This document shows positions 718 through 63,569 of a DNA stretch of 64,000 nt, piece by piece. The DNA lies in the NCBI GenBank assembly GCA_051313645.2, contig JBNRSN020000008.1:38440001-38504000 (forward strand), read 5' to 3'. The position numbers and the translations under genes were made by a program. Positions within the stretch are counted from its first letter, which is position 1; each line of letters begins with the position of its first letter. Under the pieces are notes generated by a model that had not been told where the DNA came from, did no database searches, and was given only the letters and a program-made list of their open reading frames with translations. The stretch comes from Centroscyllium fabricii. Taxonomy: Eukaryota.

Positions 718-1343
718 GGGGGAAAAATTCAGTTGGTTGCACCTCCCGTTAGCGCCTTAGGAGGGCGCTAATGGGGGCGCAAAGCAACTAGCGCCCGGGT
801 GCGGCGGGTTTAGCGCTACTTGGGAAATTGATTAGTCATTTTGCAGCGGCGCTAAACACTACCACCGCGATCCCCTGCGCTGGCAGATGGTGACGTCATT
901 CGAGTGAGCAACGCCCCGGACTGGATATTGAGTGGCGCCCCCTGCCTTACCGCCTGCCGCTAACAACGACAGGTTGAGGCGAGCATTCTGCAGTCAGAAA
1001 GGGACTGGGGGAGCGCTATTTAAAGGTGACTGCTTCCTGCCTTTTTTTGTTGGTGACAATTTTGCACCACGCATTCTGAGAGTTTGAGAGAGAAACTTCT
1101 GGAGAGATTCAATACTGTGTGAAGGAGTTTTGGGTACTGAGCAGCACTTTGCAGGTTCATTTTGATTTGCGCTTCCTTGTATCGTTTTAGAAGAGAATGT
1201 GGGGGCTGCACTCTCAGCTCTTTCCCTGGGTCTCTCCATTGTTCTTCCCAGCAAATTTGATGTACCTGTCTCTCCAGGCCGAGATTCAAGGCTGCAATGA
1301 GCAGGATGTGGATGGAGAGCAAGATCAATCCTCCCCTTTAAGA

Positions 1344-1430
1344 TAAAAACAGAATATGCAGGAGAAACTCAGCAGGTCAAGCAGCATCTGTGAAGAGAGA
1401 AACAGAGTTAACGTTTCAGGTCGATGACGA
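1344..1430 (-). ncRNA. Penelope-derived mini-insert with minimal hammerhead motif, split by the Gypsy insertion (other part at 6261-6279)
   Basis: Rejoined minus strand reads AGAGUU-CUGACGA-A-UCGUC-AUC-GACCU-GAAA-CG-UU-AACUCU; flanked by direct repeat CCTTTAAGA (1335-1343 / 6280-6288). Confidence 0.65.
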
Positions 1431-1709
1431 TGACGTATCGTCAATATCTCATAGTAAAAGACTCAACGAGTAGCTACCGTAACTATAGGCTTTTAATCAC
1501 TTACTTAGGAGCTACCCTCCGAACAAACATCTAAGCAGGAATGAGGGAGCCTCAGTCAGTCTCCACCTATAAAGGCCTCACCTGGGGGAGGAGTTAGAGG
1601 TGTGGCCGACCTGGCTCCCGACAGTGTTACAGGGCTGTGTATCACACATACACAGCCAATTATTGGCAACAAGAATACAGTGGTATACATAACATTATGG
1701 GTTACCACA
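1431..1709 (-). repeat. 3' LTR of Gypsy element 1
   Basis: Direct repeat of 5982-6260. Confidence 0.95.
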
Positions 1710-1729
1710 TTCACCCCTTCTTGAAAATT

Positions 1730-4700
1730 TTAAGTCCGGGGGGGTGAATGGACCGAGCAGTTCAATATCAGCCTATCCGGTGGTTGTGCCAGCCTGGAGG
1801 ACCGCCGGAGTTCCGGTGATGATCCTTCATGGTCCGTGCTGCTCGAGTCCGCTGGTGGTGACAGTTGCCCAGGTGCCATGGTTTCGGGTGGTGATGGTCT
1901 CCGCTGGTCCGAGCTATCGGAGTGGTGGTCCTGGGTTGGCCACTGCTGGGGCTCTGGAAAACTCGGAGGCCATTGTAGGTGTAGGGGGTGTTCTGGATAC
2001 TGTGGCTGAGCGGCCTGCTGGCCGACCAGGGGCTCTGCGGTGCTTCCTGCGGGCGCCAGGTCCCTGATAGATACGGTGTCCTCACGCCAGTCCGGGAACT
2101 GCACGAATGCGTATTGTGGGTTCGCATGCAGGAGCTGCACCTTGTCCACCAGGGGGTCGGTCTTGTGGCCATGGACGTGTCTTCGAAGGAAGACCGGCCC
2201 CGGTGTCGTGAGCCATGGAGGAAGAGCTGTCCCCGAAGGCGACTTCCTGGGAAAAGCAAAAATCAAGTCATGAGGAGTTGCGTTAGTGGCCGTACATCGG
2301 AGAGAGCGTATAGAATGCAGCGCGTCTGGGAGGACTGCCTGCCAATGGGCCACTGGAAGGCCTCTGGACTTCAGAGCCAGGGTGACCGCCTTCCAGATGA
2401 TCCCATTCTCCCTTTCTACCTGGCCGTTCCCCCGGGGGTTATAACTGGTCGTTCTGCTCGTGGCAACCCCTTTCTGGAGCAGAAACTGACGCAGTTCATC
2501 GCTCATGAACGATGACCCCCGGTCGCTATGGATGTAGCTGGGGAGACCGAAAATGGCGAACAGCGTGGTGAAGTGTTTTATCACCGTTGCGCTCGTCATA
2601 TCTGCGCAGGGGAAGGCGAAGGGGAAGCGGGAGAACTCATCTACGACTGTGAGGAAGTATGAGTTGCGGTCGGTGGTGGGGAGGGGGCCTTTGAAGTCCA
2701 CGCTGAGACGTTAAAAGGGGCAGGTGGCCTTGATGAGGTGCACCGTGTCTGGCCGGAAAAATTGGGGTTTGCACTCGGCGCAAACAGGGCACTCTCGGGT
2801 CATAGCCTTGATCTCCGTGATGGAGTAGGGGAGGCTATGGGATCTGACGAAGTGGGCGAGTCTGGTGACACCCGGGTGGCAGAGGCGGTCGTGGAGGTCC
2901 TTCAGCCGGTCCAGCTGGGCGTTGGCGCACGTTCCCCTGGACAGTGCGTCCGGGGTTTCATTGAGTTTCCCTGGTCGGTAAAGAATGTCGTACTCGTAAG
3001 TCGAGAGCTCGATCCGCCACCGCAGGATCTTATCATTCTTGATCTTACCCTTCTGTTTATTATTAAACATAAACGCCACCGACCGTTGGTCGGTGAGAAG
3101 GGTAAAACACTTACCGGCCAGGTAATGACGCCAGTAGCGCACGGCCTCCATGATGGCCTGGGCCTCCTTTTCCACTGCTGAGTGGCGAGTTTCGGGTCCC
3201 TGTAGGGTGCGGGAGAAAAACGCTACGGGCCTGCCTGCCTGATTCAGGGTGGCAGCAAGGGCGAAGTCCGAAGCGTCGCTCTCCACCTGGAAGGGAATGG
3301 ATTCATCAACAGCGAGCATGGTCGCCTTGATGATGTCTTCCTTTATCCGGGTGAATGCCGTTTGGGCTTGTACCGAAAGGGGGAAAACGGCAGCCTTGAG
3401 GAGTGGTCTAGCCTTGTCCGCGAACTGTGGGACCCATTGTGCGTAATAGGAGAAAAATCCTAGGCATCTCCTCAAGGCTTTAGGGTTGTGAGGTAGGGGC
3501 AGTTCTTGAAGGGGTCGCATACGCTGTGGGTCGGGGCCGAGGACCCCGTTCTCCACCACGTATCCGAGGATGGCGAGCCGGTCTGTATTAAAGACACATT
3601 TGTCTTTGTTATACGTGAGGTCCAGCTTATCCGCCGTGTCGAGAAATTTGGCCAGATTGGCATCATGGTCCTGCTGGTCGTGGCCGCAGATGGTCACGTT
3701 GTCCAGGTAGGGGAAGGTGGCCTGCAACTCGTTCTGGTCAACCATGCGGTCCATCTCCCGCTGGAACACTGACACTCTGTTGGTCACGCCGAAGGGGACC
3801 CGGAGGAAGTGGTAGAGCCAACCGTTCGCCTCGAAGGCGGTGTAGGGGCAGTCGGCTTTCCGGATCGGGAGTTGGTGATACGCTGACTTAAGGTCGATCG
3901 TAGAGAACACCTTGTACTGGGCGATCTGATTGACCATTTCCGAGATGCGGGGAAGGGGGTAGGCGTCGAGCCCGGTGTAGCGGTTGATGGTCTGGCTGTA
4001 GTCGATCACCAGCCGTTGTTTCTCGCCAGACTTTACCACTACAACTTGGGCGCGCCAGGGGCTGGTGCTGGCTTCAATTATCCCCTCCTTCAGCATACGC
4101 CCGACCTCCGACCTGATAAACGTGCGATCCCCCACACTGTACCGCCGACTCTTGGTAGCAATAGGTTTGCACTTGGGGTCGAGGTTGGCGAACAGTGATG
4201 GGGGGTCGATTTTCAGGGTGGAGAGGCCGCAGGCCGGGCTCTGCTTTGGGAAGGGACTGTCCCGGCTACTGACGGTGAGGGGGGGCAAGGTTCCGCCGAA
4301 CTCCATTGTCACGCTCTTGAGGTGGCACTGGAAATCCAGACCTAGTAAGGCTGGGGCACACAACTGCTGGAGGGTGTACAATTTAAAATTACGGTACACG
4401 CACCCCTTGACTGTGAGCGTGATGGAGCAGTAGCCGGTGACGTCCGCGGTGTGGGACTTTGAAGCAAGGGAGACTTGGTAGTTTGTGGGCAGGATCTGCA
4501 GTCCGCAGCGCTGCACTGTATCGGGGTGCACAAAGTTCTCCGTGCTTCCAGTGTCAAATAGGCAATTAGTAGTATGGCCGTTTATTTTGATGGGCATTAT
4601 TGAGTTAGACAGGGTGTGTGGCCTGTCCTGGTCCACTCTGGGTATGGCTGAAGCAGACGTGTGCTTCTGTGTGTGTGGGCCCCCTGCTGGTTGGTGCTGT

Positions 4701-5955
4701 ACACAAAATGGCGGCGCCCCTGGCTCGCACATGGTGGGGCCCTGGAGACAAAATGGCGGCGCCCCTGGCTCGCACATGATGGGGCCCTGGGGACAAAATG
4801 GCGGCGCCGAGGGGTCGCACATGGTGGGCCGCTGGGGGCGAGATGGCGGCGCCCGTGGTTCGCACGCGGCTGACCACTGTGAGCGCGCTGGCGGCGCCCG
4901 TGGTTCGCACGCAGCAGGCCGCGGTGACTGGGTTGGCGGCGCCCGTGGTTCGCACGCAGTGGGCCGCGGTGGCTGGATTGGCGGTGCCCGTGGTTCGCAC
5001 GCAGCCGGCCGCATTGGGTCTGCTGCTGGCGTTGGGGGGTCGCGCTTGGCCGGCCTTTGCCGCCTCGGGGTGGGAGATGGAGGCGCTTTCCTCCTACCCC
5101 CGGACCGTCGCTGGATCGCGCTGCTATTGCAGCTTACCTGAGGTCTGTCGCTTTCACAGGCTGCGCTGTTGTACCTGGAGTTGGGCGCTGTTGGTGCTGA
5201 TCTGCAAGCCTTTGCGTAATGTCCTTTCTTGGCGCACCTCTCACAGGTCGTGGTCCTTGCTGGGCATCTCACTCTCGGGTGCAGTCCCTGGCTGCAGAAG
5301 TAGCAGCGTTTGTCTTTTGTGGCTGTCGCAGCCATCGTGGGGGTCTCGGCCCGTTGTGGTGCTGCCCAGGCCTGGGTCCGTTGTGGCGCGGCCCACATGT
5401 CATAGGCCTGCGGGTTTGTGCCGCTGTACGCTTGTAGTTTGTTGCGTGCTCCTTCCACGGAGTTAGATATAGCAATCGCATCTTCGAGGGACAAAGTGTC
5501 TTTTTCGAGCAGCCGCTGGCGGGCTTCCACGCACCTTAGTCCAGTTACATACGCGTCTCGGACGAGGAGGTTAGCCTCCTCTTCTGCTGTCCGGGCTTGG
5601 CAGCCACAGACCCGTACCAGGGCCTGGAGCGCTTGCTCAAATTGTTCATTAGTCTCACCTGGTAGTTGTGGTCTGGTCGCGAGCACATGTCTGGCGTAGA
5701 CCGAATGGACCGGGCGCTCGTAGCATTTCCTCAGCTTTTCCACTGCCCCGGGTAGGTTTTGGCGTCTCGGATGAGGGCGAATACTCGGCTGGAGATCCTG
5801 GACCGGAGAACCTGTAGCTTGTTCCCGTCGGTTGTAGCCTTGGCGGCGTCCATATAGGCCTCCAGGAGACCGAACCAGTGTTCGAACGTGGTGGCGGCGG
5901 CAGGGTCCTGTGGACTGATATCCAGCTTTTCTGGCTTTACTGCACCGCTCTCCAT
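1730..5955 (-). pseudogene. Gypsy gag-pol polyprotein with one frameshift near 5745 and one in-frame stop at 2711
   Basis: Two CCHC knuckles (CYFCSQGLHPRVRC, CERCAKKGHYAKAC), protease LFDTGS, RT IDLKSAYHQ / YLDN, RNase H ESDAS, integrase HHCC and D-D-E (DFKGP, SDRG, VERENG). Confidence 0.93.
4706..5010 (-). repeat. 45-bp coding minisatellite in Gag (7 x 15 aa)
   Basis: Units such as PAACEPRAPPIQPPR and PTMCEPGAPPFCVQH. Confidence 0.9.
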
Positions 5956-5981
5956 TTTAAAAAACTTTAAGTGATTAAAAT

Positions 5982-6260
5982 TGACGTATCGTCAATATCT
6001 CAGAGTAAAAGACTCAACGAGTAGTTACCGTAACTATAGGCTTTTAATCACTTACTTAGGAGCTACCCTCCGAACGAACATCTGAGCAGGAATGAGGGAG
6101 CCTCAGTCAGTCTCCACCTATAAAGGCCTCACCTGGGGGAGGAGTTAGAGGTGTGGCCGACCTGTCTTCCGACAGTGTTACAGGGCTGTGTATCACACAT
6201 ACACAGCCAATTATTGGCAACAAGAATACAGTGGTATACATAACATTATGGGTTACCACA
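5982..6260 (-). repeat. 5' LTR of Gypsy element 1
   Basis: Direct repeat of 1431-1709; TATA-like TTTATAGG and ATTAAA on the minus strand. Confidence 0.95.
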
Positions 6261-6545
6261 GACGATTCGTCAGAACTCTCCTTTAAGAATTGGACGGTGC
6301 CAGTGTGTCTGTGTTCCATTGCTGACTGACAGCGCCTGCGCTGCGCCCGCGCTCTGAAGTAGCGCCTCGGTAGACGGCCTTTGCGCCTGAAGAGAGTTGT
6401 GTAGCGCCTGATTTAGCGCTCCAATCACCTCCACGGGCGTTAAAAGTCAAGTTTGCAGTTGGAGGCGATAATTAGCGCCAGGCGCTAAATTTTGCGCACC
6501 GCCCAGAATGGTGCCCCAAATGGGGCGATACCGAATTTTTCCCCC

Positions 6546-7130: not shown

Positions 7131-7268
7131 AATCTTTGTTGCTTGCCAGTGCTCTTTCAAACAGGATATTTCTTTCTAGAATTGCAAGTTTGAAAGTACT
7201 CTCAGTAATACTGTTGTACAAATACTTAGCACACAAGATTGGAAGGCAATATCTGGATGTACAATAGC

Positions 7269-7327
7269 TTGTGATTTCAAATAAAACTGTTGGACTATAA
7301 TCTGGTGTTGTGTAACTTCTTACAATA
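7269..7327 (+). mobile_element. Penelope terminal-repeat fragment with a 13-bp target duplication
   Basis: Nearly identical to 54937-54977 plus 60588-60603; flanked by GATGTACAATAGC (7256-7268 / 7328-7340). Confidence 0.7.
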
Positions 7328-10471: not shown

Positions 10472-10531
10472 GGAGGTTTATGACAAATGTCAGGTACGGA
10501 ATACAATCGAAACCAGGCAGAATACAGCGAG

Positions 10532-10630
10532 AAATAAAAACAGAAAATGCTGGAAATACTCAGCAGGTCAGGCAGCAACTGTGGAAAGTGACACCGAGTT
10601 AACATTTCAGGTCGATGACCTTTTGTCAGA
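10532..10630 (-). mobile_element. Penelope-derived hammerhead mini-insert with decayed core
   Basis: Minus strand CUGACAA-A-AGGUC-AUC-GACCU-GAAA-UG-UU; 14-bp duplication CAGAATACAG(C/A)GAG (10518-10531 / 10627-10640). Confidence 0.7.
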
Positions 10631-11867
10631 ATACAGAGAGTGCAGGGGGAAATTGAAAAGGGATACAAGAAGGGCAAAGAGAGAGTATGAGAAAAGATTA
10701 GCAGGTAACATCAAAGGGAACCCAAAAATATTGTATAAACATATAAAAACAAAAAGGAGAATTAACGAAATAGTGGGGCCAATTAGGGACAAAAAAAGGG
10801 AAATCTTCTTGTGGCTGAAGTATTGAATGAGTACTTTGCATCCGTCTTCACGAAAGAAGAAGATGAAGTTAAAGTCACAGTAGAGGAGGGGGAGTAGAGA
10901 TATTGGAAAGGATACAAATAGATAGAAAGGAGCTGCTAAAAAGGTTGCCAACACTCAAAGTTAACAAGTCACCCGGTCCGGATGGGATGCTGAGGGACGC
11001 TCTGACCACAATTTTTCAATCCTTCTTTAATATGGGAGTGGAGCCAGGGGACTGAAGGATTGCAAATATTGCACCCCTGTTCAAAAAGGGAGAGAAGGAT
11101 AAACCTGGTAACTACAGGCCAATCAGTGGCGGGAAAACTATTGGAGACCATTGTCAAGAACAAAATTAATTCTCACTTGGAGAAGCATGGGTTTATAAGG
11201 GACAGCCAGCATGGATTTGTTAAAGGCAAATCATGCCTGACTAATCTCACTGAGTTCTTTGATGAAGTAACAGAGAGGGTTGTTGAAAGCAACGCAGTAG
11301 ATATATATATGGACTTTCAAAAGACATTTAATAACGAACCATATAACAGACTTATTCAGAAAATAGAAGCACGTGGTATTAAAGGGACATCGGTAACTTG
11401 GGTACGGAATTGGCTAAGGGATAGGAGGCAGAGAATAGTGGTGAATAGATGTTTATCTGACTGAAGAGAAATATGCATTGGGCCCCCCCTCCCCAAGGAA
11501 ATTGAATAAAAAGCCTCCACCAAGAAGAAAGTGCTTGGGACTCCAGAAACATAGTTCATGTGGTCATTCTGAAACCACGAAAAGTTGTGTAATGTTAAGT
11601 TGGACTGCACGTGGAATACAGGGATCATATCCCGCACCGAGTGTTAGGACTATTGCTTTTCTTGGTATATATAAATGACCTGGACTTTGGTATAGAGAGT
11701 ACAATTTCAAAGTTTGCAGATGATACAAAACTTGGCAACGTAGTAAATAGTGAGCATGCTAATAGCAAACTTCAGGAGGACATAGACAGGCTGGTGAAAT
11801 GGGCGAACACATGACAGATGCAATTTAATGCGGGTAAGTGTGAAGTGATGCACTTTGGGAGAAACAT

Positions 11868-12713
11868 GGGGGGTAATTTTGACGGAAGGGCGGGAACCTG
11901 GCGGGGATTGGTCTGGGCGGCTTCCGGTCCCGCCCACCCAAACAGCTGGGAAGGCCACGCAACTTTAGTTTAATTAGGTCGTAAAATCCCCGTTGGCGGC
12001 AGCGGGAGGTAATTAGGTCAATCGAGTCGGGCTGCAGCGGAGCTGCGAGCACTTTGATTGACAGTTCCAGCACTGGTTGTTGTCAGTTCCCGTGGAAACA
12101 CTCCACTGTGACATCACAGTGGAGTAGAGCCAATGGGAAAGGCCAAGTGCTGGTGACTGACAGGTGGGTGGGCGGGCTTAGAATCCCTCACAACGTGCAG
12201 CGACTGTGAGGCACTGTTCAGAGCTGAGATTGCTCAGTTTCTGCTAACAGCTGCTGCTTAAGCCAGAACAGAGTTACTTACTTCTCTAAGGTGCTGGAGG
12301 CATGCTAAGCATTTGGCAGCATATCCTTCACACCTTTAAGGAGAAAGTAATGAATTCAAGAAGTCACACAACACCAGGTTATAGTCCAAAAGTTATAACC
12401 AGTGCTGTGCTCCCACTGGGTTTCACCCAGCGGGGTTTAAGGTGGCGGGGTTAGGGCGGAAAACAGTGCAAAATGGCTGAGGGCCCTTAAAATGGCATTA
12501 AAGATGCCAATTAAGGGCCCTTAACGAGGTGACAACCCATCCCCACCGGTCGGCGGTGGGAAGGTTTCGGGGCAGGGAATCTGGGCGGGCAAAAATGTGA
12601 AAGCGGCGGGGATACGGCGGGGGTGGGGGGGGGGGTGGGACCTGCCGGTTGCGCTATTTTGCCGGCCGGGCCGCCGAAAACCCCGCCTCACGGGGACATG
12701 AAAATCACCCCCC
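11868..12713. mobile_element. Harbinger-like MITE (family B/C)
   Basis: TIR GGGGGGTAATTTT / AAAATCACCCCCC; CAT/ATG duplication; interrupts a CR1; homologous to 31338-32266. Confidence 0.75.
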
Positions 12714-19637: not shown

Positions 19638-20174
19638 CAGGTTGAAGACCGTTAATCCGGTAACCGAAAAGCCGGCAGCTTCAGTCATCCGGCATAAATT
19701 GCCCTGACTGCCCTGCGCATGCGCAAAATGGCCGCCGCGAGTGATGCTTTGGTGAATGATCTGAGCATGCACCGGCGAACGGCGAGCGCATGCACAGATC
19801 ATTCAAAATGGCCGCCGGAAGTTTTGAATGATCTGCACATGCGCCGCCGAATGGCGAGCGCATGCGCAGACCATTCAAAACTTCCGGTGGCTATTTTGAA
19901 TGATCCGCGCATGCACTCGCCATTTGGCGGCACATGCGCAGACCATTCCAAACTTCTGGTGGCCATTTTGAATGATCTGTGCATGCGCTCACCGTTCGGC
20001 GGCGCATGCGCAGATCATTCAAAATTTTGCGGCGGCCATTTCCAATGTTCTGCGCAGGCGCACGGCCATTTTGAATGGTCTGCATGCGCACTGGACGCCT
20101 TCATTCTTCCGGCTTTTTCACTATACCAGCGCGGGCCTGGTCCCACCCATGCCGGATTAACGGTGTTCAACCTG
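19638..20174. mobile_element. Tc1/pogo-like MITE with an internal hairpin array
   Basis: TIR CAGGTTGAAGACCGTTAATCCGG / CCGGATTAACGGTGTTCAACCTG, TA TSD. Confidence 0.88.
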
Positions 20175-23768: not shown

Positions 23769-23918
<150 letters not shown>

Positions 23919-31337: not shown

Positions 31338-32266
31338 GGGGGGGATTTTCCTTGGGCCGTGAGGGCGGGTTTCCGGTGGAGCGGGGCCTAAAATCCCCAA
31401 ACCGGGGGGGTCCCGAGCCTTCCCGCCGGATCCCCGCCGCTTTCTGGCAGCGTGTCCAGCCGACCCGAATCTTTCCCGCCCGCCACCAGCGGGGTGATCG
31501 TTGAGGTAATTAGGGGCCCTTAATTGACATGGGTAATCCCATTTTAAGGGCCCCTCATGATTTTTAAGCCCTTCCCACCCATTTCCCACCATCCTGAAAC
31601 CCCGCCGGTGAAAGCTAGCGGGATCTCAGTTGGCTTGGTCACTTTCACCTTCAAGGCATTGAAGGACCTACAGCAGAATGCCTTCCAGGCCTTCAACACC
31701 CTGGAGGTGTAAGTGACTCACTTGGGTGAAGACCAGCTGTGGAGAAAACACTGAAAAGACTTAAAATGATAACAAAATACTGCAGATGCTGGAAATCCGA
31801 AATAACAACATAAAATGTTGGAAAAACTCAGAAGTTCAGGCAACATCCATAAGAGAGAAATAGGAGTCAACGTATCAAAAAGACTTACATTGACAGATGC
31901 TGCAATGCTTCATAGAGAGACGGCCCCTCACTGTGAAAGCTTTGCAGCGTGTCCTTAGACCTGTCACTCAACCCACTTGGGCTTTGAGATTGGTTGCACT
32001 CCATTGTGATGTCACAATGTACTGTTTCCATAGAAACTATCAACACACAGTCCCTAGAACTGCCAATCAAACCTCCGGCTGTCATCTGCAGGCCGCTGCT
32101 TTCCGACTAGAAATTGTGTATTGGCAGGGGCTTCCCACACGCAGGCAATTAATTGGCCAATTAAGCCAAAATTGCATGGGGTTCCCAGGCCCTCAAACAT
32201 TCGTGTCAGAAAACTGACACGCCCAAAACCCACCAGCTTCCTACACCTTTGCGAACGCCCCCCCCC
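31338..32266. mobile_element. Harbinger-like MITE (family B)
   Basis: G-run and C-run termini; interrupts a CR1; reverse complement of 40511-41257. Confidence 0.75.
31764..31876 (-). mobile_element. Penelope-derived mini-insert inside the MITE
   Basis: 10-bp duplication AAAAGACTTA (31754-31763 / 31877-31886); absent from the homologous position near 40825. Confidence 0.75.
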
Positions 32267-39645: not shown

Positions 39646-39789
39646 CTGAAAATGCTGGAAAAACTCAGCAGGCCCAGGCAACATCCGTGAAGAGAGAAAT
39701 AGAGTCAGCGTTTCGTGTCACGAAACGCTGACTCTGTTTCTCTCTTCACGGATGTTGCCAGGCCTGCTGAGTTTTTCCAGCATTTTCAG
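39646..39789. repeat. Near-perfect inverted repeat (arms about 72 bp) of the Penelope-derived motif
   Basis: Arms 39646-39717 and 39719-39789 around a 1-nt centre. Confidence 0.9.
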
Positions 39790-39838
39790 TTGTTATTTCG
39801 GATTTTCAGCATCCGCAGTATTTTGCTGTCAACACAAT

Positions 39839-41257
39839 GGGGGGGGGGGGGCGGAATTCAGTTGGGCGCTAATGGGGGCGCAAAGCAACTAGCGCCCGGG
39901 CGTGACAAGTTTAGTACCGCTCAGGAAATTGACTAGGCATTTTGCGGCGGCGCTAAACACTACCGCCATGATCTCCTGCGCCGGCAGATTGTGACGTCAT
40001 TCGAGTGCGTAGTGCCCCGGAACAGATATTGAGTGGCGGCGCCTGCCGCTAGCAACGACAGGTTGAGGGGAGCGCTCTGCAGTCAGAAAGGGACTGGGGG
40101 AGCGCTATTTAAAGGTGACTGCTTCCTGCCTTTTTTTGTTGGTGACATTTTTGCACCACACATTCTGAGAGAGTGAGAGAGAGAGACTGCTGGAGAGATT
40201 CAACGCTGTGTGAAGGAGTTTTGGGTACTGAGCAGTACTTTGCGGGTTCATTTTGATTTGTCCTTCCTTGTATCGATTTAGAAGAGAATGTGGGGGCTGC
40301 ACTCTGAGCTCTTTCCCTGGGTCTCTCCATTGTTCTTTCCAGCAGATGTGATGTACCTGTCTCTCCAGGCCGAGATTCAAGGCTGCAATGAGCAGGATGT
40401 GGATGGAGAGCAAGATCAACCCTCCCCTTTAAGATAAAAACAGAAAATGCCAGAGAAACTCAGCAGGTCAAGCAGCATCTGTGAAAAGAGAAACAGAGTT
40501 AACGTTTCAGGTTTTCTGACTCGAATGTTTGAGGGCCTGGGAACCCAACGCAATTTTGGCTTAACTGGCCAATTAATTGCCTGCGTATGGAAAGCCCCTG
40601 CCAATACACAATTTCCAGTCGGAAAGCAGCCGGCTGGAGTTGACAGCCGCAGGTTTGATTGGCAGTTCTAGGGACTGTGTTGTTAGTTTCTATGGAAACA
40701 GTCCATTGTGACATCACAATGGAGTGCAACCAATCTCAAAGCCCAAGTGGGTTGAGTGACAGGTCTAAGGACTCGATGGAAGGCTTTCACAGTGAGGGGC
40801 CATCTCTGCAGCAGCTGTCAAGGTAAGTCCTTTCAGTGTTTTCTCCATAGCTGCTCTTCACCCAATGGAGTCACTTACACCTCCAGGGTGTTGAAGGCCT
40901 GGAAGGCATTCTGCTGTAGGTCCTTCAATGCCTTGAAGGTGAAAGTGACCAAGACCACTGTGATCCCGCTGGGTTTCACCGGCAGGATTTCAGGATGGCG
41001 GGGTATGGGTGGGAAGGGCTTCAAAATCGCGAGGGGCCCTTAAAATGGGATTGCCCATGTCAATTAAGGGCCCCTAATTACCTCAACATTCAACCCCGCT
41101 GGTGGCGGGCGGGAAAGATTCGGGTCGGCTGGACACGCCAGCTGAAAACCGCAAAGCGGCGGGGATCCGGCGGGAGGGGTCGCGACCCCTCGGTTTCAGG
41201 ATTTTAGGCCCCGCCGTGCCGGAAACTCGCCCTCACGGCCCTCCGAAAATGCCCCCC
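39839..41257. mobile_element. Chimeric Harbinger-like element (family A left part + family B right part)
   Basis: 39839-40510 matches 718-1420; 40511-41257 matches the reverse complement of 31338-32215. Confidence 0.78.
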
Positions 41258-44300: not shown

Positions 44301-45340
44301 TGGCCCGTGCCTTCATCTCCGCCTGGGTGGCCCGGTTCGGCGTCCCGTTGGACATTACCTCCGACAGGGGCCCCCAGTTCACTTCACAGCTCTGGGGCGC
44401 CATCGCCGCCGGTCTGGGATCTACCCTGCACCGCACAACGGCCTACCATCCCCAATCCAACGGCTTGTGCGAGCGCTTCCACCACGCCCTCAAGGCCTCC
44501 CTCCGCACCAGCTTGGCTGACGCCAACTGGCTCGACAGACTCCCCTGGGTCCTGCTCGGGCTGCGAGCAGCCCCCAAAGAAGACCTCGGTGCCTCCTCGG
44601 CCGAATTAGTCCTAGGCCAACCCCTCCGCATCCCCGGGGAATTCCTCCCCTCCGCCACCGAGGGTTGGACGGCGGCCGAGCAGCTGGCCCACAGCAACGA
44701 CATGGCCCACCGTCTGCTCCCCGCACACACGTCGTCCCACGGGGCCCGGCAACCCATCTGCCCGCCGAGCTGCGCCAGGCCCGTTCCGTCTTCGTGCGCC
44801 GGGATGCCCACCAGATGCCACTCCAGGCACCATACACTGGCCCCTTCCGCGTCCTGGAGGCTGGGGACAAAGCCTTCCTCTTCGCAGTCGGTGGGAGGAA
44901 GGGCCTGGTGTCCAGCCCCGCCCGCCACGGCCACACCCCGGCCGGATCCCATCCCCGTCCGTGACACGCCCGCGGGCTACCACACGCGCTCCGGCCGCCT
45001 GGTCAAACCTCCCTGCAGGCTGACCTTCCATGTACATGGGGATTCTGGGGGGGCGTATGTTGTGGCGCTACCCAGGGAAACCACCAGGGCTCCCCTCTCA
45101 GGCATAATCCCCATGCAACGGTCGGTCCCGCCCCCGCAGTTCGATTGGACAACCGGTTTGCCAGCCTTGGTCCCTCAGTGGCCTAAGGAACTGCCACTCA
45201 GACCGACTCATGTGCCCCAGAGTGCTTTGCGGATTCGCAGGCTTTTTCAAACAGTTTCCTTCTGAGCAAATGTAAATTTCCTCCCGCACCCCGCGTCTTT
45301 TTACTTTTAAAAGCGAGTAGGTAGTCCGCCGACTCCTACA
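41326..45340 (+). mobile_element. Gypsy LTR retrotransposon, CsRn1 clade, internally deleted
   Basis: LTRs 41326-41625 and 45058-45340, 4-bp TSD GTAG, PBS TGGTGACCCC, CHCC motif, PR-RT deletion near 42515, multiple stops and frameshifts. Confidence 0.95.
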
Positions 45341-50238: not shown

Positions 50239-50387
50239 GTGAGCAGAATCCTTTCCCACATTTCTCTTCCAGCCCTTCGTGGCCTGTCTTCTTTTGACTA
50301 AGTTTGCACGCCAACAGGCAGGTTTTAAAATCACATTGCACAACGTCAACAAGATTTTATTTAGTTCTAAATAAAGTATTTTATAGA

Positions 50388-50785: not shown

Positions 50786-51114
50786 TACTTTATAGAGTAG
50801 AGCTAGAGAATTCCGTGCAACTGTAAAACTCTTTCTTAATGCACAATATTCTACAAACAAGAAAAACTGACAACTGGAAATCAGAAATAAAAACGCATAG
50901 CTGATCGGGAGGCATCTGAAAGAGAACGAGAAGTTAACATTTCAGATAGGGCCCTTCACCCGAGTAGAATATGCTCTACACTTTAGGCCATTCTAACTTA
51001 GTGTTTTTTGTGTCAGAGAACTGACAGGTAAATTAAATACCTGTGACAACTGATGACCACAATTAGCAAAACTGCCTGACTGAACAAGTATTGCTTGCTT
51101 GCTTTTTGTTATAG

Positions 51115-53426: not shown

Positions 53427-54029
53427 CAGAATTCAGTTCTGACTTCAGCCAAAACATTCAGCTCTCTTTTTGTCTGTATGAGGCGCTGGCTGCCTTGTTC
53501 TTTATTGCCAGCACTTGCTGCTGCCATTTCAGTATTTATGAAGCTGCATATTGATCGACTGCCCAGGATAGGGTTTGAACGCACTAACGGAGCGGTGAAA
53601 ATTAAGTGCTAATCAGTGTCTAGCATAATATTGGAGCTGCATTTTGGTGGGGTAAACAGGACCAAGAGAATCTGTGGGAGAATGTTTCTGAGGTAGATGA
53701 CAGGTTGTAGACCTCAGACACAGCTGCAGTCCTGCTGTAATACAGAACACCTGCAGGCAACAGCACCACGGTACCATTTAATACATCATTCCTTATACAT
53801 AATCCAGCCATCAAAAGGTACCTGTGCTTGATGTTGACAGACAAAACACACAAACGATTGGCCATAATTGCTCTTGCTAACTGGATTTTAAGTACAAAGA
53901 TAGGTTTTTTGCCTGGATGAAAACACCCAGCTCCAATCCGATTATGGAACATGATTCCAGTCTCTCCACATTAATCCAACTAACCGCTGCAGAGCATAAC
54001 ACAGAGCAGGATGTAGGGAAGAAGATGTT

Positions 54030-54437: not shown

Positions 54438-54766
54438 ATGGCAGATGTTGAAATGCTCTTGCATTCTACTTTTGGGATCGATTTTTAAATTTAGTTCTGA
54501 TTTATTTTCCTCACTGTGCCTGCCCTTCGGGTATGCATTGCCTACAACAAGAGCGAATTGATTTGTTTTTTATATGATTCATATTTATAAATCCTCAGAA
54601 TATTGTCACTGATAATGAATGTTGAGCAGTATTAGATAATCCTCCCTGTAATACATGGGTATTCTGCAGCTCTACAAGTCAACTGCTTGATTGCAAAGTA
54701 GAACATTGAGTTCCTCGACAGACTCGCCTCAGTTAAGTGGCTTCTTTGGCTGACCACTAAAGGGAG

Positions 54767-54977
54767 ATAGTCAGAAAACAATGCTAGATGATAGGTAATT
54801 TTTCTAATGGCCCTTTATCACACCTCGGCCGTTAGAAAAATTACCTGTAATCATCTAGCATTGTTTTCTGACTATATATGCCGTGCCTACGCGCATCTCT
54901 TCACTTCACCTGAGGAAGGAGCAGCGCTCCGAAAGCTTGTGATTTCAAATAAAACTGTTGGACTATAACCTGGTGTG
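54767..54977 (+). mobile_element. Penelope-like pseudo-LTR with an inverted 5' extension; continues at 60588-60645
   Basis: Inverted repeat 54767-54812 / 54827-54875, hammerhead motif, AATAAA, tail shared with 7269-7327. Confidence 0.75.
54906..54942 (+). ncRNA. Minimal type I hammerhead ribozyme motif
   Basis: UCAC-CUGAGGA-A-GGAGC(AGC)GCUCC-GAAA-GC-UU-GUGA: intact core, 5-bp stem II, 4-bp stem I, palindromic AAGCUU stem III. Confidence 0.75.
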
Positions 54978-57900
54978 TGTTAAGTCCACGCTTTCGATCT
55001 ATAATAACAGCGGACTAGACTCCAAGGTATGAAACCAAGAGATGTTTATTCAATCGTTACAGAGTCTGGAACTGAGCATATCGCTCCACGTATGAACGCT
55101 ACACGTGTGGTAGACCGCGGTACTGCAATATTATGGCACTACACAAAGTAGTGCCCAGTACAATTCTCTTAAAGGTACATACACCACATTCCTCCCCTCT
55201 TAATTTACCTTTACGGTACAACATTTCAGGATACGAGGGGACTAACAATTAACTATTTATATAACAGTAAGTGCCACGTCTTCTGTGGTATTATCGTGGC
55301 AGATCGTCTGTTCCGTCGGTACCGTGGTTTGGGGCAACGCTTTATTGGCTACCATAGCCTTCACGATTTGGTCAGCGTGTCTTCTAATTTGCCCCTCTGG
55401 AGTGTCCACCGTGTATGATAATGGTCCTTGTCGATGACTGATAGTTCCAGTCTGCCATTTGTCATTTCGATAGTTTCTGGCAAACCATTCTTGACCCACC
55501 TCGAAGCTCCTGATTTCCCTGTCAGAAGCTTTTTGGAATATTCTGTTTTCCACATCACGTCTGATGTTAGGTTGTAACAGATCCAATCTACTGCGTAATC
55601 TCCTATTAAAAAAACAAGACTGCAGGCGCTTGATTAGTTATTGCATGGGCAACGTTACGGTATGCAAATAGAAAATTATATATTTTATGTTGTAAATCCA
55701 ACTTTCCTCCCCCCATGGCCTTGATTGCCTTTTTGAACGTCTGGACGAACCTTTCGGCCAATCCATTAGTGACTGGGTGATACGGTGCCGATCTGTAATG
55801 CCGTATTCCGTTCCTTTTTAAGAACGCTTGAAATTCCTCAGACACAAATTGAGGTCCGTTATCAGAACAGATTTGAGTGGAATCACCACTCTGGCCCCGC
55901 ACATTAACTGGCGAACATGGTCCGGAGAACCGCGACTGTCTTCTCCGCTGTGGTGGAGGACATTTTTATTACCTCTGGCCATTTAGAATGGGCGTCCACT
56001 ACCACCAGGAACATGGCATCCATAAATGGCCCCGTGAAGTCAATATGGATTCTTTGCTATGGGGATGATGGCCACTCCCAAGGGTGTAGGGGTGCCTGGG
56101 GCAGTGCATTCTGTACCATCTGGCAACCTGTACATTTTTTTGCCAGTTGTGCGATGTCTTTATCGATTCTAGGCCACCACAAGTATGCTCTGGCTAGGGA
56201 CTTCATCTTAACCCCGCCCAAGTGTCCCTCGTGTAAATCAGTTAAAAATTGTTTACGTAATTTGAGTGGAATCACCACTCTGGCCCCGCACATTAACGTG
56301 CCCCGGCAGACCGTCAACTGGTCTTTTCTAGTCACGTAATCTGGCCATAGATTAAGATCCTCCCTGGACCATCCTTTTATGGTGATGCTATGGATTTTAG
56401 ATAGAATGGGGTCATCTCTAGTTTCCCTTTCTATTTGTTGGCTGGTAACTGGTAATTGTTCCACCACTGCCGTGTGATATAGTTCTAGAGGATCTTGTTG
56501 TCCCCCCTCTCCTGTTTCTGGCAGAGGTAATCGAGACAGGCCATCCGCAATACCATGCCGCTTGGTTCCTTTGTGTTCTATGGTGTATTTGTGTGCACCC
56601 AAGAACAATGCCCATCATTGCAGCCTTTGAGCTGTCATCTGGGGAACCCCTTTTTCTGGGTGAAATATCGATACCAAGTGTTGGTGATCAGTTAATAGAG
56701 TGAATTTTTGCCCGTGTAAGTAGTGGTGAAACTTTTTCACCCCCCACACGAGGCTGAGTGCTTCTCGGTCTATCTGGGCATAGTTTTTCTCTGCAGTAGT
56801 GAGTCATTTAGACGCAAATGCGATTGGTCTTTCTGACCCATTGGGGCATTTGTGTGATAGCAGCGCAGCAATGCCATACGGGGATGCATCGCATGCCAGT
56901 TTGATGGGTAAGTTGGGATCAAAATGAATCTGTACCTCTCTTGAGGTGATCATGTTTTTGCTTTTCTGGAAAGCGGCCTCACAGGTTTTCTCCCACCTCC
57001 AGGGTGTTCCCACTTGGAGTAGTGCATTCAATGGATAAAGCACTGTTGATAAGTTGGGTAGAAACTTATGATAATAATTTATGAGTCCCAGGAATGACCG
57101 TAACTGGGAAACGTTTTCTGGGTGTAGAGCATTTACAACGGCCGCAATCTTGTCTGGCGATTTATGGAGGCCCTCGCTATCTATTTCATGCCCACAGTAT
57201 GAAATGCGGTCTTTGAAAAATTCGCACTTTGTTTGTTGGCCCGCAGACTATACAGGTTGAGCACCGTTAATCGGGCACGGGCGGGACCAGGCCCGTGCCG
57301 GGAAATGGAAAAAACCGGGAGAACGAGTTTGGACACTGCGCATGCGCGCCAGGCAAAATGGCCGCGCGCATGCGCGCAGCATTGCGATTGGCTGGCGCGC
57401 GAATGCGCAGTTCGGGCCCGGGTCCGCCGTCCCTCTCCATCGCCTTTGGGGTTGCTGCTGCCGCCGAGCGGGACTCAGGCTGACAGCTGTTGCTTAGTGA
57501 CTGTCCGCCTCAGTCACTAAGCAACAGCTGTGTGACTATGATCATTTTGAAGTAATAACAGAAAACGCTGGAGAAACTCAGCAGGCCAGGCAGCATCGGT
57601 GGAGAGAGAAGCAGAGTTAACGTTTCAGGTCGATGACCTTTCTTCAGATGCTGCCTGGCCTGCTGAGTTTCTCCAGAGATTTCTGTTGTTTCGGATCGAG
57701 AAAATAACGGGCGGCCGTATTGAATTATCTGCGCATGCGCTAACCGTCCGGTGACGCATGCGCAGATCATTCAAAACACCCGCAGCTGTTTTGAATGATC
57801 TGCGCATGCGCTCGGCGCATGCGCAGATCATTCGCTGAAGCCACGATGGGGGCTGCCATTTTGCGCATGCGCAGTGCAGTCGGGGCAGTTTGTGCCGGCA

Positions 57901-60587
57901 GACTGAAGCTGCCGGCTATTCGGGACACGGATTAACGGTGCTCAACCTGTATTCCTTTAGTCTCTCTAATACTGTTTCTAGATTGGCCAAATGTTCCCCA
58001 TCCGTTTTTCCCGTAACTAAAATGTCATCCAGGTAGCATTGTGTCCCTGGAATACCTTGCAATACCTGGTCCATGGCCTTCTGCCATATGGCTGGAGCTT
58101 ACACAATTCTGAATACCATTCGGTTGTATTGATACGGCCCTTTATGTGTATTGATGGTCAGCAGCTTTCTGGAATCCTGCTCCACCTCCATTTGAAGGTA
58201 CGTTTGCATAAGGTCAATCTTACTGAAGCGTTTTCCACCTGCTGAAGAAGCAAAAATGTCTTCAATTCTTGGTAATGGGCACTGTACGACCTTTAGAACA
58301 GGATTAATGGTCATTTTGAAGTCCCCACAAATGCGGACCTTTTTCTGTTCACCCTCCTTGTTTTGCGTTCTTTTAATTACTGGCACAATGGGCGTTGCCC
58401 ACTCGCTCCATTCGACCTTTGACAAAATCCCTTCTGCTTCAAGGTCTCTAGCTCTGCCTCCACAGCCGTTCTTATGGCGTAAGGTACTGACCGTGCTTTC
58501 GCAAATATTGGGGTTGCCCCTTGTGTAATCAACACTCTAGCGTTAATATTTTTTAACTTCCCCAGGCCAGGTTGGAAAACCTCTGGGTTTTTCTCCAATA
58601 TTGTTTTTAGTCTCCCATCAACTGATGGTTTATTATCGGCCTTACTCGAAATCTGGGGTTTGTTTATTGTACTCCAGTCGAGGTGGATCCTCCTGATCCA
58701 TTCCCGCCCCAGAAATGGTGCTCCCCCATCTTTCAGGACATATCAGTACAGTCCCTTTATTTGTTTTCCCATATATTGGACTGTTATGGGCAGCCTCCCC
58801 ATTGTCCAAAATTGTTGTCCTGTATATGTTTTTAGGATGACTGGGGATTCTTCTAAAGGCGCCCCCTGAATGCCTTCCTGTAAACTTTTTCGTTGATCAC
58901 CGAGAGTGCTGACCCCATGTCTAATTCCATAGATATCTCAACTCCCGCAACCTTGAGGGGAACCCATATCACACTACGATCTGTAGCATTCACCAAGTTG
59001 TGGACCTTGAGAGTTCCAAGACCCCATTCTTCTCTATTGGAGTTTTCTGATTCGTTACCCGAAACATCTTCAGAGAGTTTGTGTACTTTCTTACGCCTGG
59101 CCTGTTTCTGCAGCATTTTAGGTAGTTTCCCCGAGCTGCAAGCTGCCGCTATGTGGCCTATCTTGTCACACTGTCGACAGTCCTTGTCTTTAGCCCGACA
59201 CCTACTCTGATCGTGTGTGGTCTTGCCACAGCGGTAGCACTTTTTAGTGCATGTTGTAATTTCACGGGTATCGTAGTAGATCCCCTTGCTCCTTATCGTG
59301 GCTGCCCCGCAGCAGCTGCCTCGTGTGCTGCTGCAGTTTCTATCGCCTGGTCCAGTGTGAGCGTCTTTTTAGCTAAAAGTTCCTTTTGTGTAGATTCATC
59401 CAAAATTCCACACACAAATCTGTCCCTTAAGTATTTTGTCAGTTCTTCCCCAAATTCACAGTTTTTAGACAGTCTTCTGAGTTCCGTTATGTACTCTGAC
59501 TGTGACTCTCCTTTTTGTTGATCCCTTTTAAAGAACTTGAAGCGTTCTGCTATAAATGGGGGTTTGGGGTTTAAATTCTCTTTTAATATGTTAATAATCT
59601 CTTGCAGTGTTTTGTCTGCTGGCTTGTCTGGGGACACCAGGGTTCTCAACAACCCGTAAGTTTCAGGCCCCATTGCATTCAACAGAGTGTTTACTTTGTT
59701 GGCATCAGTTACTGTCTGTACTTTACAATAGATGTCAAAGCGTTCTAGGTATGCCTCCCAGTCTTCCTTCTCTAGCTGGAAGGCCCCGAAAGTGTTTAAT
59801 TTAGCCATGGTTGAAGTACTCCGAAGCGTTCAAAATGGCGTTTTCGTGCCTTTTTGCTTCTCTTCTGGTGCTTTTCCCGCCTCAAAATGGCATTTTCCCG
59901 CCCTTTTACTCTCCTTCCCCACTGAGTTTCCAATTTCCCCGCGATCATTGGGAAGGGTTGCACTCTACCTGCACTTTCCCGTTGTCCTGTGGTTGGAGGA
60001 CCACCCTTGATCCTCGACAACCTTCGTGTACGACTGCCTCTGTCGTTCTGGAACTTCTGTGTCGACCCCCGATGTGTGACTGTTTCTGTCATTGTCTACC
60101 TCTTGGTCGACATCCGATGTCCGACTGCTTCTGCTGGGCCATGTCCTCGATAGTGCCAACGCCACTCCCGATGTTGGAGTGCTGGCTGTCTTCGTTCCCT
60201 CTGCGTTACTGGAGAATCGCTGCTGCTCCCTCTTTTGGAGTGCAGGGTATGTTGCAGTGGTCGATGGTCGACTGTAAGAAATGAAAATTTTTCATTCTTT
60301 CTTTTGTAAGCCGATTACACTGCTGTGGATTCGACCGACCTCATCGCCATTGTTAAGTCCGCGCTATCACTCTATAATAACAGTGGACTAGACTCCAATG
60401 TATGAAACCAAGAGATGTTTATTCAATCATTACAGAGTCTGGAACTGAGTATATCGCTCCACGTACGAACTTATATATACACATGTGGTAGACCGCGGTA
60501 CTGCAATATTATGGCACTACACGAAGTAGTGCCCAGTACCCTTGAGTATTGTGTGAGTATTGTATTCTTAAAGGTACATACACCACA
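54978..60587 (-). mobile_element. Gypsy LTR retrotransposon, Mag-like, degenerate
   Basis: LTRs 54978-55188 and 60351-60587, PBS TGGCGATGAGG (tRNA-Ser-like), PPT AGAGGGGAGGAA, TSD about (T/G)TGTG; gag (LRDRFVCG), two knuckles, PR ELDMGS, RT, RH LACDAS, IN SDNGPQF. Confidence 0.93.
57253..57949. mobile_element. Tc1/pogo-like MITE inserted in the Gypsy RT; carries a hammerhead-type insert
   Basis: TIR CAGGTTGAGCACCGTTAATC / GATTAACGGTGCTCAACCTG, TA TSD. Confidence 0.9.
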
Positions 60588-61104
60588 TTGTGTGACTTCT
60601 TACATTTGTCCACCCCAGTCCAACACTGGCGCCTTCACATCATGTGTAGAAGGACTCAGATTAGAAGTCAGACTGTCAGTGTTTGACAGCTTCAAACAGC
60701 TGTGAAACACTGATATTTCAGCTGTCAAGACCTCTTGACAGATGAAATATCAATCTGTGATGTCACCTGTTGCTGGGTGGCCTTTATTTGGCCTGCTGGG
60801 CGGGTTCAACAAGGTCAATCAAGTTAAAATTGCGTGGGTTGGCCACATCTCAATGGAGGCAGGACTACAAGCCCGAAAGTTGTAGTCCTGCCTCCGGCGT
60901 TAAAATCATCACCGTTATATGTAAATTTTCACCAAAATACAATACAATGGGGTAAAGATTGCCAGGGTACCTTCGCGGCTGATTTTCCGAGATAGCGCCC
61001 TGAGAGGGAGGAGGGGTACTTCTGGAAGTGCCCCGCGTCCCTCTTGGGGCCCGGAGAAGCCAATATCGCGGCACTATGTGCCGCAGTACTTCCTCCCCTT
61101 GTTA

Positions 61105-61672: not shown

Positions 61673-61754
61673 GGGGAGGGGCCTTGCACAGCGCTCTTGG
61701 AGCGCCAACGGGAGGTAGAAATCAACCAAATTTTGCCCCCAATATGTTCAAGTT

Positions 61755-61930
61755 CCTGGGTCAAAATCCTGGAACTCCCTACCGAATAGCATTGTGAGAG
61801 CACCTACATCACACAGACTGCAGTGGTTCAAGAAAAAGGCGGCCAACCACCTTCTGAAGAGCTGCTAGGGGATGGGCAATAAATGCTGGCCTTGCCAGTG
61901 ACCCCCACATCCTGAAAATGATTTTTTTTT
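61755..61930 (+). mobile_element. Non-LTR retrotransposon 3'UTR fragment (17110 family)
   Basis: GGGTCAAAATCCTGGAACTCCCT...GGGCAATAAATGCTGGCCTTGCCAG. Confidence 0.8.
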
Positions 61931-62824
61931 AAATACAGAGAAGATGTAATTTTTCTTTGTGTGTGTGTGTGTGTTTTGGAGCCTCTTCTCTCATCTTGTC
62001 ACGGGTGGATTTCAACAAAATATTGTATGACTAGTCCTGCGAATTACTCTTAAGTGGATCATAGTCTGCTGGACCTTAAAGCAAAAGACCCCTCCCCAAA
62101 GCAGTGAGGTTATGTTGTATTTACCTGACACAGGTGTGTTGACTTTTGCAGCAGCGCTGGAAGGTGTATGTGATGGCACTGTTGTCTCCAGTGGCATTGA
62201 GATGCAACTGAAGAGATGATTCTTCCCAGCAGCTCTGGAGGCAGTAGTGCCAATATAGTCGTCATCCAGCAGGGCACCATCATCTCTGGCTGCTGATGGG
62301 CTGAGTGTTCAGCCAACTCACAGATTAGCAATACACAGTTTCTCAGCTGGTGGTGTGCACATACCTTTCCCAGCTAATTGACAAAACTACAGCAGGCCGA
62401 AAATGTCTAGCCTGTTGCATTGTTCCACGGAAGCTCAGCGTAAACTCGAGGAACAGCACCAAACCGAAATCCCGAGTTGCGCCAAAATAACCATTTTTTT
62501 TCTTAAATAAATTGAAGGAAGTGACCAGCTTCAGCAGAAAAAATATGTTTTTACCTTGATGCCGTGCTGTTGATGCCGTGCTGAGGAAATAAACGGCCGA
62601 TATGCCGTTCCAAACGACCGATATGCCGTTCCCCGACTGCAAACTGGGCTGCAAACACAGCAATGTGCATGTGCATGTGATCTGCACATGCGCACTGGGC
62701 AAAATCTAAAAACTGAAAAATCCCGAAAACCGAGACCCACCCGGTCCCGAGGTTTTCAGATAAAGGGTTGTGTACCTGTATATATGTGTGTATATATATA
62801 TATATATATACATATACAGCTATA

Positions 62825-63569
62825 CAGGTTGTGCACCATTAATCCATTACCCAATAAGCCAGCAGCTTCAGTCTTCCGGAACAAATTTCCCCGAGTGTCC
62901 TGCGCACGCGCAAAATGGGTCGCGTGATCGATGCTTCGGCAAATGATCTGCGCATGCGCCGCCGAACAGCAAGCGCATGCGCAGATCATTCAAAACGGCC
63001 GCCGGAAGAGAAGTGCTGCCTGTGCTCCCAGAATGCTGCGGCTGGGCGGGTGAGGAAGATGGCGCTGAGCGGTCGGCGGTGCAGATACGGGGCAGCTCCC
63101 TTGTAAAAGCTGGGCTGAAGCCGGTGGGAGAATAATGTGAGTGTGAAATGTTTCCCTCGCCGACGTTGTGGATGAAAAGTCCTGCTCCCTCTATGTACGC
63201 GAGGAGTGAGAAGCTCCGCGGCTGCAGCTATCACATCCATAAACATTCCCCCACAAGCTTTAAAATCTTTCTCCCCTCCCGGCTTCTCTAGTTTTGAAAA
63301 AAGGTCATCGACCTGAAACGTCAACTCTGCTCCTCTCTCCACCGATGCTGCCTGGCCTGCTGAGTTTCTCCAGCATTTTTCTGTTGTTATTTAACATTTC
63401 TTTAGGACTCCTCAAAACTTCACGGCGGCCATTTCCAATATTATGCGCATGCGCGTGGCCATTTTTAATGGTGCGTGCATGCGCACTGGCCGGCTTCATT
63501 CTCCAGGTTTTTTCGGTATACCGGCACAGGCCTAGTCCCACCCGTGCCGAATTAACGCTGCACAACCTG
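62825..63569. mobile_element. Tc1/pogo-like MITE with a Penelope-derived insert (about 63290-63392)
   Basis: TIR CAGGTTGTGCA...TGCACAACCTG, TA TSD; ends homologous to 19638-20174. Confidence 0.85.

Follow-up and report, generated by a model that had tools for sequence, protein, structure and literature searches.

The short hammerhead-type inserts of a 64,000-nt stretch of the Centroscyllium fabricii genome (the window, meaning the whole of the DNA analysed) are very probably 5′-truncated ends of two Penelope-like elements (PLEs), with a unit-length class of cDNAs that likely run to the capped start of uncleaved element RNA. On sequence grounds, the two families of inserts, A and B, are the hammerhead-bearing pLTR plus tail of two abundant EN+ PLEs (PLE-A and PLE-B), because the same sequence is found downstream of RT/GIY-YIG reading frames. 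The initial annotation had read the inserts as mini-retroposons mobilised on their own; this is unlikely, and they appear to be ordinary Penelope footprints.

Positions within both families are counted from the predicted hammerhead cut (the base just before the cut is 0, and C3 is -28). Profile searches (E-value cut-off 0.001) returned 11 family-A and 4 family-B matches in the window, and a 1.4-Mb control of reversed sequence gave no match; the family-A match at 53447 was marginal. The sense strand of most family-A copies was the minus strand. Sequence inspection and profile search both recovered the two repeat families where the initial annotation had placed them, and every stretch on its list was present, but it had overlooked the family-B fragment 60588-60644 (Table 1).

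Table 1. Family-A and family-B copies in the window and the LTR retrotransposon that splits one of them
Position	Strand	Feature	Basis
1344..1430	-	3′ part of a family-A (PLE-A) end: short 3′ end, stem III, partial stem II; within a host repeat	profile, host comparison
1431..6260	-	LTR retrotransposon encoding protease, RT, RNase H, and integrase; its LTRs are 1431-1709 and 5982-6260
6261..6277	-	5′ portion of the 1344 family-A insertion; begins close to the predicted initiator (-33 to -30; TSD microhomology)
10531..10632	-	Single-arm family-A insertion of the unit-length class, with 3′ end short and 5′ end near -31; microhomology at a TSD of about 14 bp
31764..31877	-	Single-arm family-A insertion, long tail, 5′ end -8, no CUGANGA, 10-bp TSD
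39646..39830	.	Two-armed head-to-head family-A insertion: short arm plus long-tail arm, starts -7 to -13, no CUGANGA
40432..40513	-	Copy of the 1344 insertion, duplicated along with the host repeat; 5′ part gone
50874..50965	-	Old diverged family-A relative, E about 2e-5
57546..57696	.	Two-armed family-A insertion, arms -29 to +71 and +20 to about +74; within TA-flanked TIR MITE 57253-57949
63249..63400	+	Family-A end that extends to -73 and includes a TATA-like box (63259), a predicted initiator A (63290), and a U3-A8 hammerhead variant
7263..7327	+	Single-arm family-B (PLE-B) insertion with a 13-bp TSD; 3′ end short, start near the cut site, core absent
12353..12396	-	Family-B fragment +13 to +56 within a host repeat that carries the fragment at further loci
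54766..54983	+	Family-B insertion in which an inverted UTR segment is followed by a sense arm that starts near -111; 3′ end cut short
60588..60644	+	Family-B tail-only fragment

Real retrotransposition with target-site duplications (TSDs), as annotated, was found at 31764, 1344/6279, 7269, 10532, and 39646. The empty homologous site reported near 40825 for the 31764 insertion was clean, with a TSD of 10 bp. The TSD of the 1344/6279 insertion was approximately 12-13 bp, and host copies were empty at four loci (L178, L006, L163, and L101); that of the 39646 insertion was 8-9 bp and imperfect. The LTR retrotransposon at 1431..6260 entered stem II of the 1344 copy with a 5-bp duplication and is a later event, outside family A. 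Among single-arm copies, TSD scores of at least 8 were obtained for 6/50 in family A (null 3%) and 6/26 in family B (null 6%). Older copies mostly showed no detectable TSD, and the TSD of two-armed inserts was often 12 bp.

The listed copies were not all independent insertions, and 4 of the 11 (40434, 57555, 63290, and 12355) were passengers of multiplied hosts. The 1344 insertion has host-borne duplicates at 40434 and at locus L094, and the host repeat of the 12355 fragment carries the same fragment at L161, L216, and L247. Hitch-hiking in MITEs was borne out by the 57555 and 63290 copies, both inside TA-flanked TIR MITEs; the latter is fixed in a 745-bp MITE (62825-63569) and was multiplied together with it. 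The proposed unit size of 60-115 bp is too small for the 63290 copy, which reaches 5′ to -73, and for the 54876 copy, which reaches -111. A motif search of the window, together with a look at individual candidate exons, turned up no recognisable calcium-channel exon, an outcome that neither confirms nor refutes the calcium-channel intron of the initial annotation.

Penelope-type minimal type I hammerheads with a palindromic stem III are present in the window. Read in sense, both families contain a CUGANGA box followed by one unpaired purine, stem II of 5 bp, GAAA, and a palindromic NNUH; stem I has 4 bp. Instead of the several whole ribozymes announced, a strict descriptor retained one (54910), to which a whole U3-A8 variant (63290/63294) can be added. 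The retained motif, in the insertion at 54766..54983, has a TATA-like box at 54873, a predicted initiator A at 54903, C3 at 54910, and a predicted cut after 54938. Other window cores were defective (G8 mutated to A at 10532, 5′ strand of stem I missing at 57555, LTR-split at 1344) or contained no CUGANGA (31764, 39646, 40434, 7269, and 12355). Structurally whole motifs represented 24/46 of the distinct motifs in family A and 11/19 in family B. Within the 46 distinct family-A motifs, the 3-8 pair was C3-G8 in 26 and U3-A8 in 11, the first pair of stem II was A-U in 29 and G-C in 8, and the first pair of stem I was U-A in 36 and C-G in 3, counts that stem from few independent events. Covariation across copies, which the initial annotation had named as a test, was seen in the stems and the 3-8 pair across subfamilies; therefore, the ribozyme is probably functional in the parent elements. 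A search against Rfam (E up to 10) returned no hammerhead family, only hairpin look-alikes, and monomer folding of four window motifs was uninformative (z-scores -1.7 to +0.2).

The connection with complete elements was found for both families. Genomic relatives of the 10532 insert varied in upstream extent and had two fixed downstream ends, and one of them reached the end of a reading frame. The PLE-A protein as query gave 127,111 first-look candidates in the genome. At 24 of 30 loci picked by protein alone, family A lay downstream of the GIY-YIG C-terminus or stop codon on the same strand, mostly after a gap of 270-390 bp. One PLE-A locus (L093, minus strand) showed, in order, pLTR, tail, ORF start, a nested fragment, the remaining ORF, and a second pLTR; a pLTR on both sides of the ORF, with the tail being the start of the next unit, was observed for PLE-A only, at this locus. 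Family B was found behind a second GIY-YIG frame, mostly 366-401 nt downstream, and a GIY-YIG C-terminus was present upstream of 17/150 family-B matches; the PLE-B protein is known here from its C-terminal part. Motifs of RT and of a C-terminal GIY-YIG in one ORF were present in the frames of L092 and L093. Atlas look-alikes of both proteins, which are leads, were RT/GIY-YIG clusters (RVT_1, HTH_animal, GIY-YIG) at 0.97; the PLE-A protein matched 0 Pfam families and nothing useful in the PDB. Upstream of GIY-YIG, both proteins have a Cys-x4-Cys-x2-Cys linker motif, which may point to the Neptune/Nematis clades. The inserts also showed EN+ PLE traits: 5′ truncation, an inverted 5′ copy, a one-sided 30-40-bp tail, and a short TSD. 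In an unselected sample of 1.4 Mb (140 evenly spaced 10-kb stretches), we observed 58 family-A and 55 family-B matches, equivalent to approximately 300,000 ends per family in the 7.2-Gb genome if the sample density holds genome-wide.

In the same unselected sample, 5′ ends formed a continuum from beyond -800 to +64, which lies inside the tail. The initial annotation had stated that a random spread of ends would mean plain truncation debris; this spread was found in large part, but with a peak at the 5′ edge of the ribozyme, so that a preferred ribozyme-plus-tail length class did emerge. Genome-wide, apparent family-B 5′ ends in 6-nt windows numbered 3770 at -36 to -31, 1066 at -21 to -16, and 278 at -46 to -41, with patterns that require three non-consensus upstream bases and a -46 to -41 control limited to one subfamily. 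By eye, approximately one-third of the edge matches listed were hairpin junctions with microhomology and one-tenth were subfamily variants. Normalised pattern counts had denominators of 2-21 sample matches and were too noisy to indicate more than direction. Family A showed a similar trend: the ends of approximately 15 short copies with the whole core lay at -36 to -29, with few further upstream (by eye). A sharp pile-up at the cleavage site, which a few two-armed inserts had hinted at, was considered and rejected, the family-B ends being 578 at +1, 516 at +4, and 240 at -3; family-A ends at +1 numbered 124, a figure with no control count alongside.

Unit-length copies of the one family-B subfamily compared did not form a lineage with a fixed 5′ end and diagnostic variants, as a SINE-like family would. 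When 42 unit-length and 40 promoter-bearing long family-B copies were compared (one subfamily, both sets picked by a common motif), polymorphisms were common to both and had matching frequencies; three columns at P = 0.02-0.05 were gaps in the long copies. The 5′ junctions, fillers, and TSDs of unit-length copies varied by locus, which argues against a master copy with a fixed junction. A TATA-like box lies upstream of the unit start, and the unit-length copies do not include it.

An initiator A was found at -35 in 34/43 long family-B copies, 30 of which have a TATA-like box at a distance of exactly 30 nt on the 5′ side, and at -32 in 11/12 long family-A copies, with a TATA-like box 30-32 nt upstream in 6 of these. 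Genome-wide, 631 family-B copies started exactly at the initiator A. Among those listed, a G preceded the A in 83/100 (by eye; 80/97 without a duplicated locus), as compared with 9/100 at the control end position +1 and approximately 18/100 at -3, also among the matches listed, the permitted letters differing between the patterns. The first 20 listed loci had the G in 14 cases: the abutting opposite arm could supply 7, 5 came from neither arm nor TSD, and 2 had no TSD. A further 20 loci were picked because they had a G and no obvious arm; of these, 15 had the G from neither source (one doubtful), 2 had it from the target, and 3 had no TSD. Filler was present at 8 of the unselected junctions and ended in G at 5 of them. 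In family A, no G excess was seen among approximately 15 short copies with the whole core; here, a splice-acceptor-like CAG coincides with the initiator (polypyrimidine tract plus CAG at -33 to -31). In the assembled contigs of four runs, loose ends at -33 were confounded by subfamily UTRs and gave no RNA start.

The extra G at the family-B initiator likely marks the capped start of the element RNA. We infer run-off of the cDNA to this start because the peak at the initiator is accompanied by the extra G, and in L1 an additional G is the mark of the cap in insertions of full length (PMC11702581). The promoter of Drosophila virilis Penelope is internal (PMC2377424), and a copy that has lost the TATA box is therefore not necessarily silent. 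A literature search that covered freely accessible papers found no PLE insertions described with a G derived from the cap or with a peak of ends at the transcription start. The end maps in the supplement of PMC11167929 may bear on the novelty of the junction signature.

The 3′ ends were bimodal in both families, with two fixed sites approximately 35 nt apart, and the long 3′ end was confirmed in assembled contigs of four runs (their status as RNA being a guess). Two-armed inserts combined one short and one long arm in 27/30 cases in family B and 13/15 in family A (expected, 48% and 45%), and long+long pairs were absent; this set is not an unselected one, because it includes loci from similarity searches, and 14 loci were dropped from it because they duplicated the window, a longer extract of the same locus, or an identical segmental copy. 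The exceptions look as if they were cut short later. In a second set, short+long pairs were again the most frequent (19/25), followed by short+short (3), unclear (2), and long+long (1). An arm aligned from +1 in 5 of the 30 two-armed family-B inserts.

A mechanism can be proposed from these junctions. Target-primed reverse transcription would start inside the RNA at one of the two fixed sites. The putative transcription start is the initiator, which precedes stem I by 0-3 nt and lies 30-31 nt behind the TATA-like box, and the element protein may bind the pLTR/ORF-start region at the RNA 5′ end. The protein would nick both target strands approximately 12 nt apart and prime one strand per start site, and the cDNA would extend 90-140 nt up to the cap. 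Initiation at the downstream pLTR of a tandem transcript could yield the long, variably truncated copies. Unit-length copies, having no TATA box, would be dead ends, and their later multiplication would be passive, inside MITEs and other host repeats. In vitro, an anole PLE initiates internally at two sites, has both strands extended, and uses uncleaved RNA as substrate (PMC11167929); the short copies here probably also derive mostly from uncleaved RNA. We lean slightly toward the full version of this proposal, in which thousands of “strong-stop-like” Penelope cDNAs arose when a protein dimer primed both strands of a 12-bp staggered cut, with one start site per strand, and read uncleaved RNA past the ribozyme as far as the cap.

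Truncation debris with a hot spot is an unlikely source of the peak. It would require RT stalling or arm annealing at the base of stem I, or a splice acceptor, with the G supplied by opposite-arm microhomology. Many edge junctions do use short complementarities within the ribozyme region, an arm that could supply the G adjoins half of the 14 Gs in unselected loci, family A has its polypyrimidine tract and CAG, and a D. virilis intron ends at helix I (PMC4209133). Family B, however, has no AG before -35, and a shared upstream exon was seen in neither family. The rarity of G at the other end positions and the fillers that end in G also argue against this explanation, and cDNA is synthesised from 3′ to 5′, so the ribozyme has already been passed by -35. 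Run-off from ribozyme-cleaved RNA, or from a circular retrozyme-like RNA, is very improbable as the origin of the short copies. The arms that start at +1, the excess of +1 over -3 ends, and the covariation that suggests functional parental ribozymes agree with cleavage, but ends at +4 were nearly as frequent as those at +1, and the cut site was read through in most copies. Neither a cap-to-circle junction nor a tandem unit array was seen in the window, and ribozyme mutants insert normally in vitro (PMC11167929). Cleaved or circular RNA may contribute a minor share in some subfamilies.

It is likewise quite improbable that the inserts propagate themselves, as ribozyme-plus-tail mini-retroposons whose unit copies are transcribed from an internal promoter and mobilised in trans. 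The preferred 5′ boundary at the ribozyme edge and the proportion of whole motifs would fit such a family, and both an internal promoter (D. virilis Penelope, PMC2377424) and non-autonomous PLE derivatives (bioRxiv 10.64898/2026.07.22.740005; PMC8557442) are described. Against a self-mobilised family stand the occurrence of the same sequence at the end of ORF-bearing elements, the continuum of 5′ ends, the polymorphisms shared at equal frequencies with long copies and the lack of private variants, the locus-specific junctions, fillers, and TSDs, and the position of the predicted core promoter upstream of the unit. The run-off of cDNA to a capped start remains the preferred reading of the unit-length class.

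The solo pLTRs, tails, inverted arms, and TSDs of PLEs are all already published. Described EN+ PLE insertions share with those reported here a C-terminal GIY-YIG, a pLTR, heavy 5′ truncation, an inverted 5′-truncated copy, a 30-40-bp tail at one end only, short TSDs, and solo pLTRs (PMC8557442, PMC3846280, PMC8969392), and a TATA box and initiator were noted in the pLTR of Adineta Pen2a in that work; what differs here is that the short+long pairing was counted and that the 5′-end peak has an extra G at the initiator. The minimal type I hammerheads of metazoan PLEs share the CUGANGA core, the unpaired base before stem II, the palindromic 15.2-16.2, and the U3-A8 variant (PMC4209133). Most single hammerhead motifs are described there as “probably related to truncated PLEs”; here, the predicted ribozyme is located in the first 40 nt of the putative transcript. 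The Anolis Poseidon element, of a clade likely different from the families here, shares in vitro the two internal RT start sites that set the tail and the cutting and extension of both strands. Its report describes no strand preference between the start sites, and a term search of the report's accessible text found no discussion of one-site-per-strand events, the cap, or the transcription start (PMC11167929).

Animal non-LTR retrozymes are likewise PLE-derived and non-coding, with a type I hammerhead and dispersed monomers, but need at least two tandem ribozyme-bearing units, whereas the inserts here are single or head-to-head and grade into ORF-bearing copies (bioRxiv 10.64898/2026.07.22.740005). 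No retrozyme-type tandem array of whole-hammerhead units was found in the window, the inserts examined all being single or head-to-head. Full-length L1 insertions likewise have a cap-derived additional G at their 5′ junction and, through twin priming that involves the second strand, inverted arms with a discrete TSD; L1, however, primes at the 3′ poly(A), whereas the two arms of an insert here are copies of one short region, begun at two fixed internal sites (PMC11702581).

As elements, these are two further ordinary Penelope-like families, and their value lies in the junctions. The formation of inverted pLTRs and one-sided tails and the role of the hammerhead are named as open in the PLE papers cited here, and what the junction signature adds to the PLE mechanism is modest but testable. 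If the model of copying to the cap is true, DNA alone would place the start of transcription in a vertebrate PLE at the hammerhead base. If the extra G is the cap, the RNA 5′ end would be fixed, the templates would be uncleaved, and there would be a simple reason for the many solo hammerheads. The cap reading predicts that approximately half of these motifs lie in sense within introns, with neither promoter nor partner; therefore, most of them are unlikely to affect host transcripts. If the model of a dimer that copies to the cap is true, a single mechanism would account for the asymmetry of the tails, the inverted pLTRs, and the abundance of solo hammerheads in animal genomes.

At least 72% of the window consisted of repeats, and matches to family A, the hammerhead-bearing ends (pLTR plus tail) of the Penelope-like element PLE-A, were approximately 4-times denser there than in the genome sample (11 matches in 64 kb vs. 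58 in 1.4 Mb). Three LTR-retrotransposon remnants were also present (table). The LTRs of the remnant starting at 1431 were 98% identical and those of the remnant starting at 26829 were 100% identical over 247 bp; thus, both are young.

Insertions of Penelope-like ends into Penelope-like elements were observed at loci cut out of the same genome. A decayed pLTR fragment of the family-A type was located in the 3′ UTR of PLE-B, directly behind the stop codon (L163, L211, and the long family-B profile); this fragment is an old nested insertion now fixed in the active element. At L093, the 3′ end of a different PLE-A subfamily was nested within the RT region of a full-length PLE-A.

Positions of family-B (PLE-B) 5′ ends were counted from the predicted hammerhead cut (last base before the cut, 0). 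In several two-armed inserts, or head-to-head pairs of ends (L116, L139, L126, and L106, three from one subfamily), an arm began at +1; some subfamilies may thus have a 5′-end peak of their own at the cleavage site. In another subfamily (L214, L149, L024, and L038), both arms started near −38 to −41, where an initiator-like motif was found; the 5′-end peak may move along with the initiator in this subfamily. The family-B region 3′ of the cut also composed the tandem arrays on contigs C420 and C224.

Coordinates of nested insertions, arrays, and other repeats
Feature	Source	Position	Details
Decayed family-A-type pLTR fragment in PLE-B 3′ UTR	L163	6654-6739	minus
Same	L211	260-358	
PLE-A 3′ end nested in PLE-A	L093	~3390-3895	minus; target duplicated
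Tandem array	C420	25949-26373	period 50 bp
Tandem array	C224	21304929-21305070	period 38 bp
TA-flanked TIR MITE	window	62825-63569	745 bp; further copies among L002-L030
72-bp palindromic tandem units	window	19742-20056, 14755, 57710, 62929	
LTR-retrotransposon remnants (n = 3)	window	1431-6260; 26829-31283; ~42000-45300	RT, RNase H, integrase

Members of the TIR MITE family were approximately 91% alike and had the 72-bp palindromic tandem units in common; these units are the source of the miRNA-like Rfam matches in the window. The family-A end fixed inside this MITE family retained the TATA-like box, the initiator, and a hammerhead with the U3-A8 core variant. In contrast to unit-length copies, which start at the initiator and lack the upstream box, the MITE-borne end could in principle be transcribed and act as a template.
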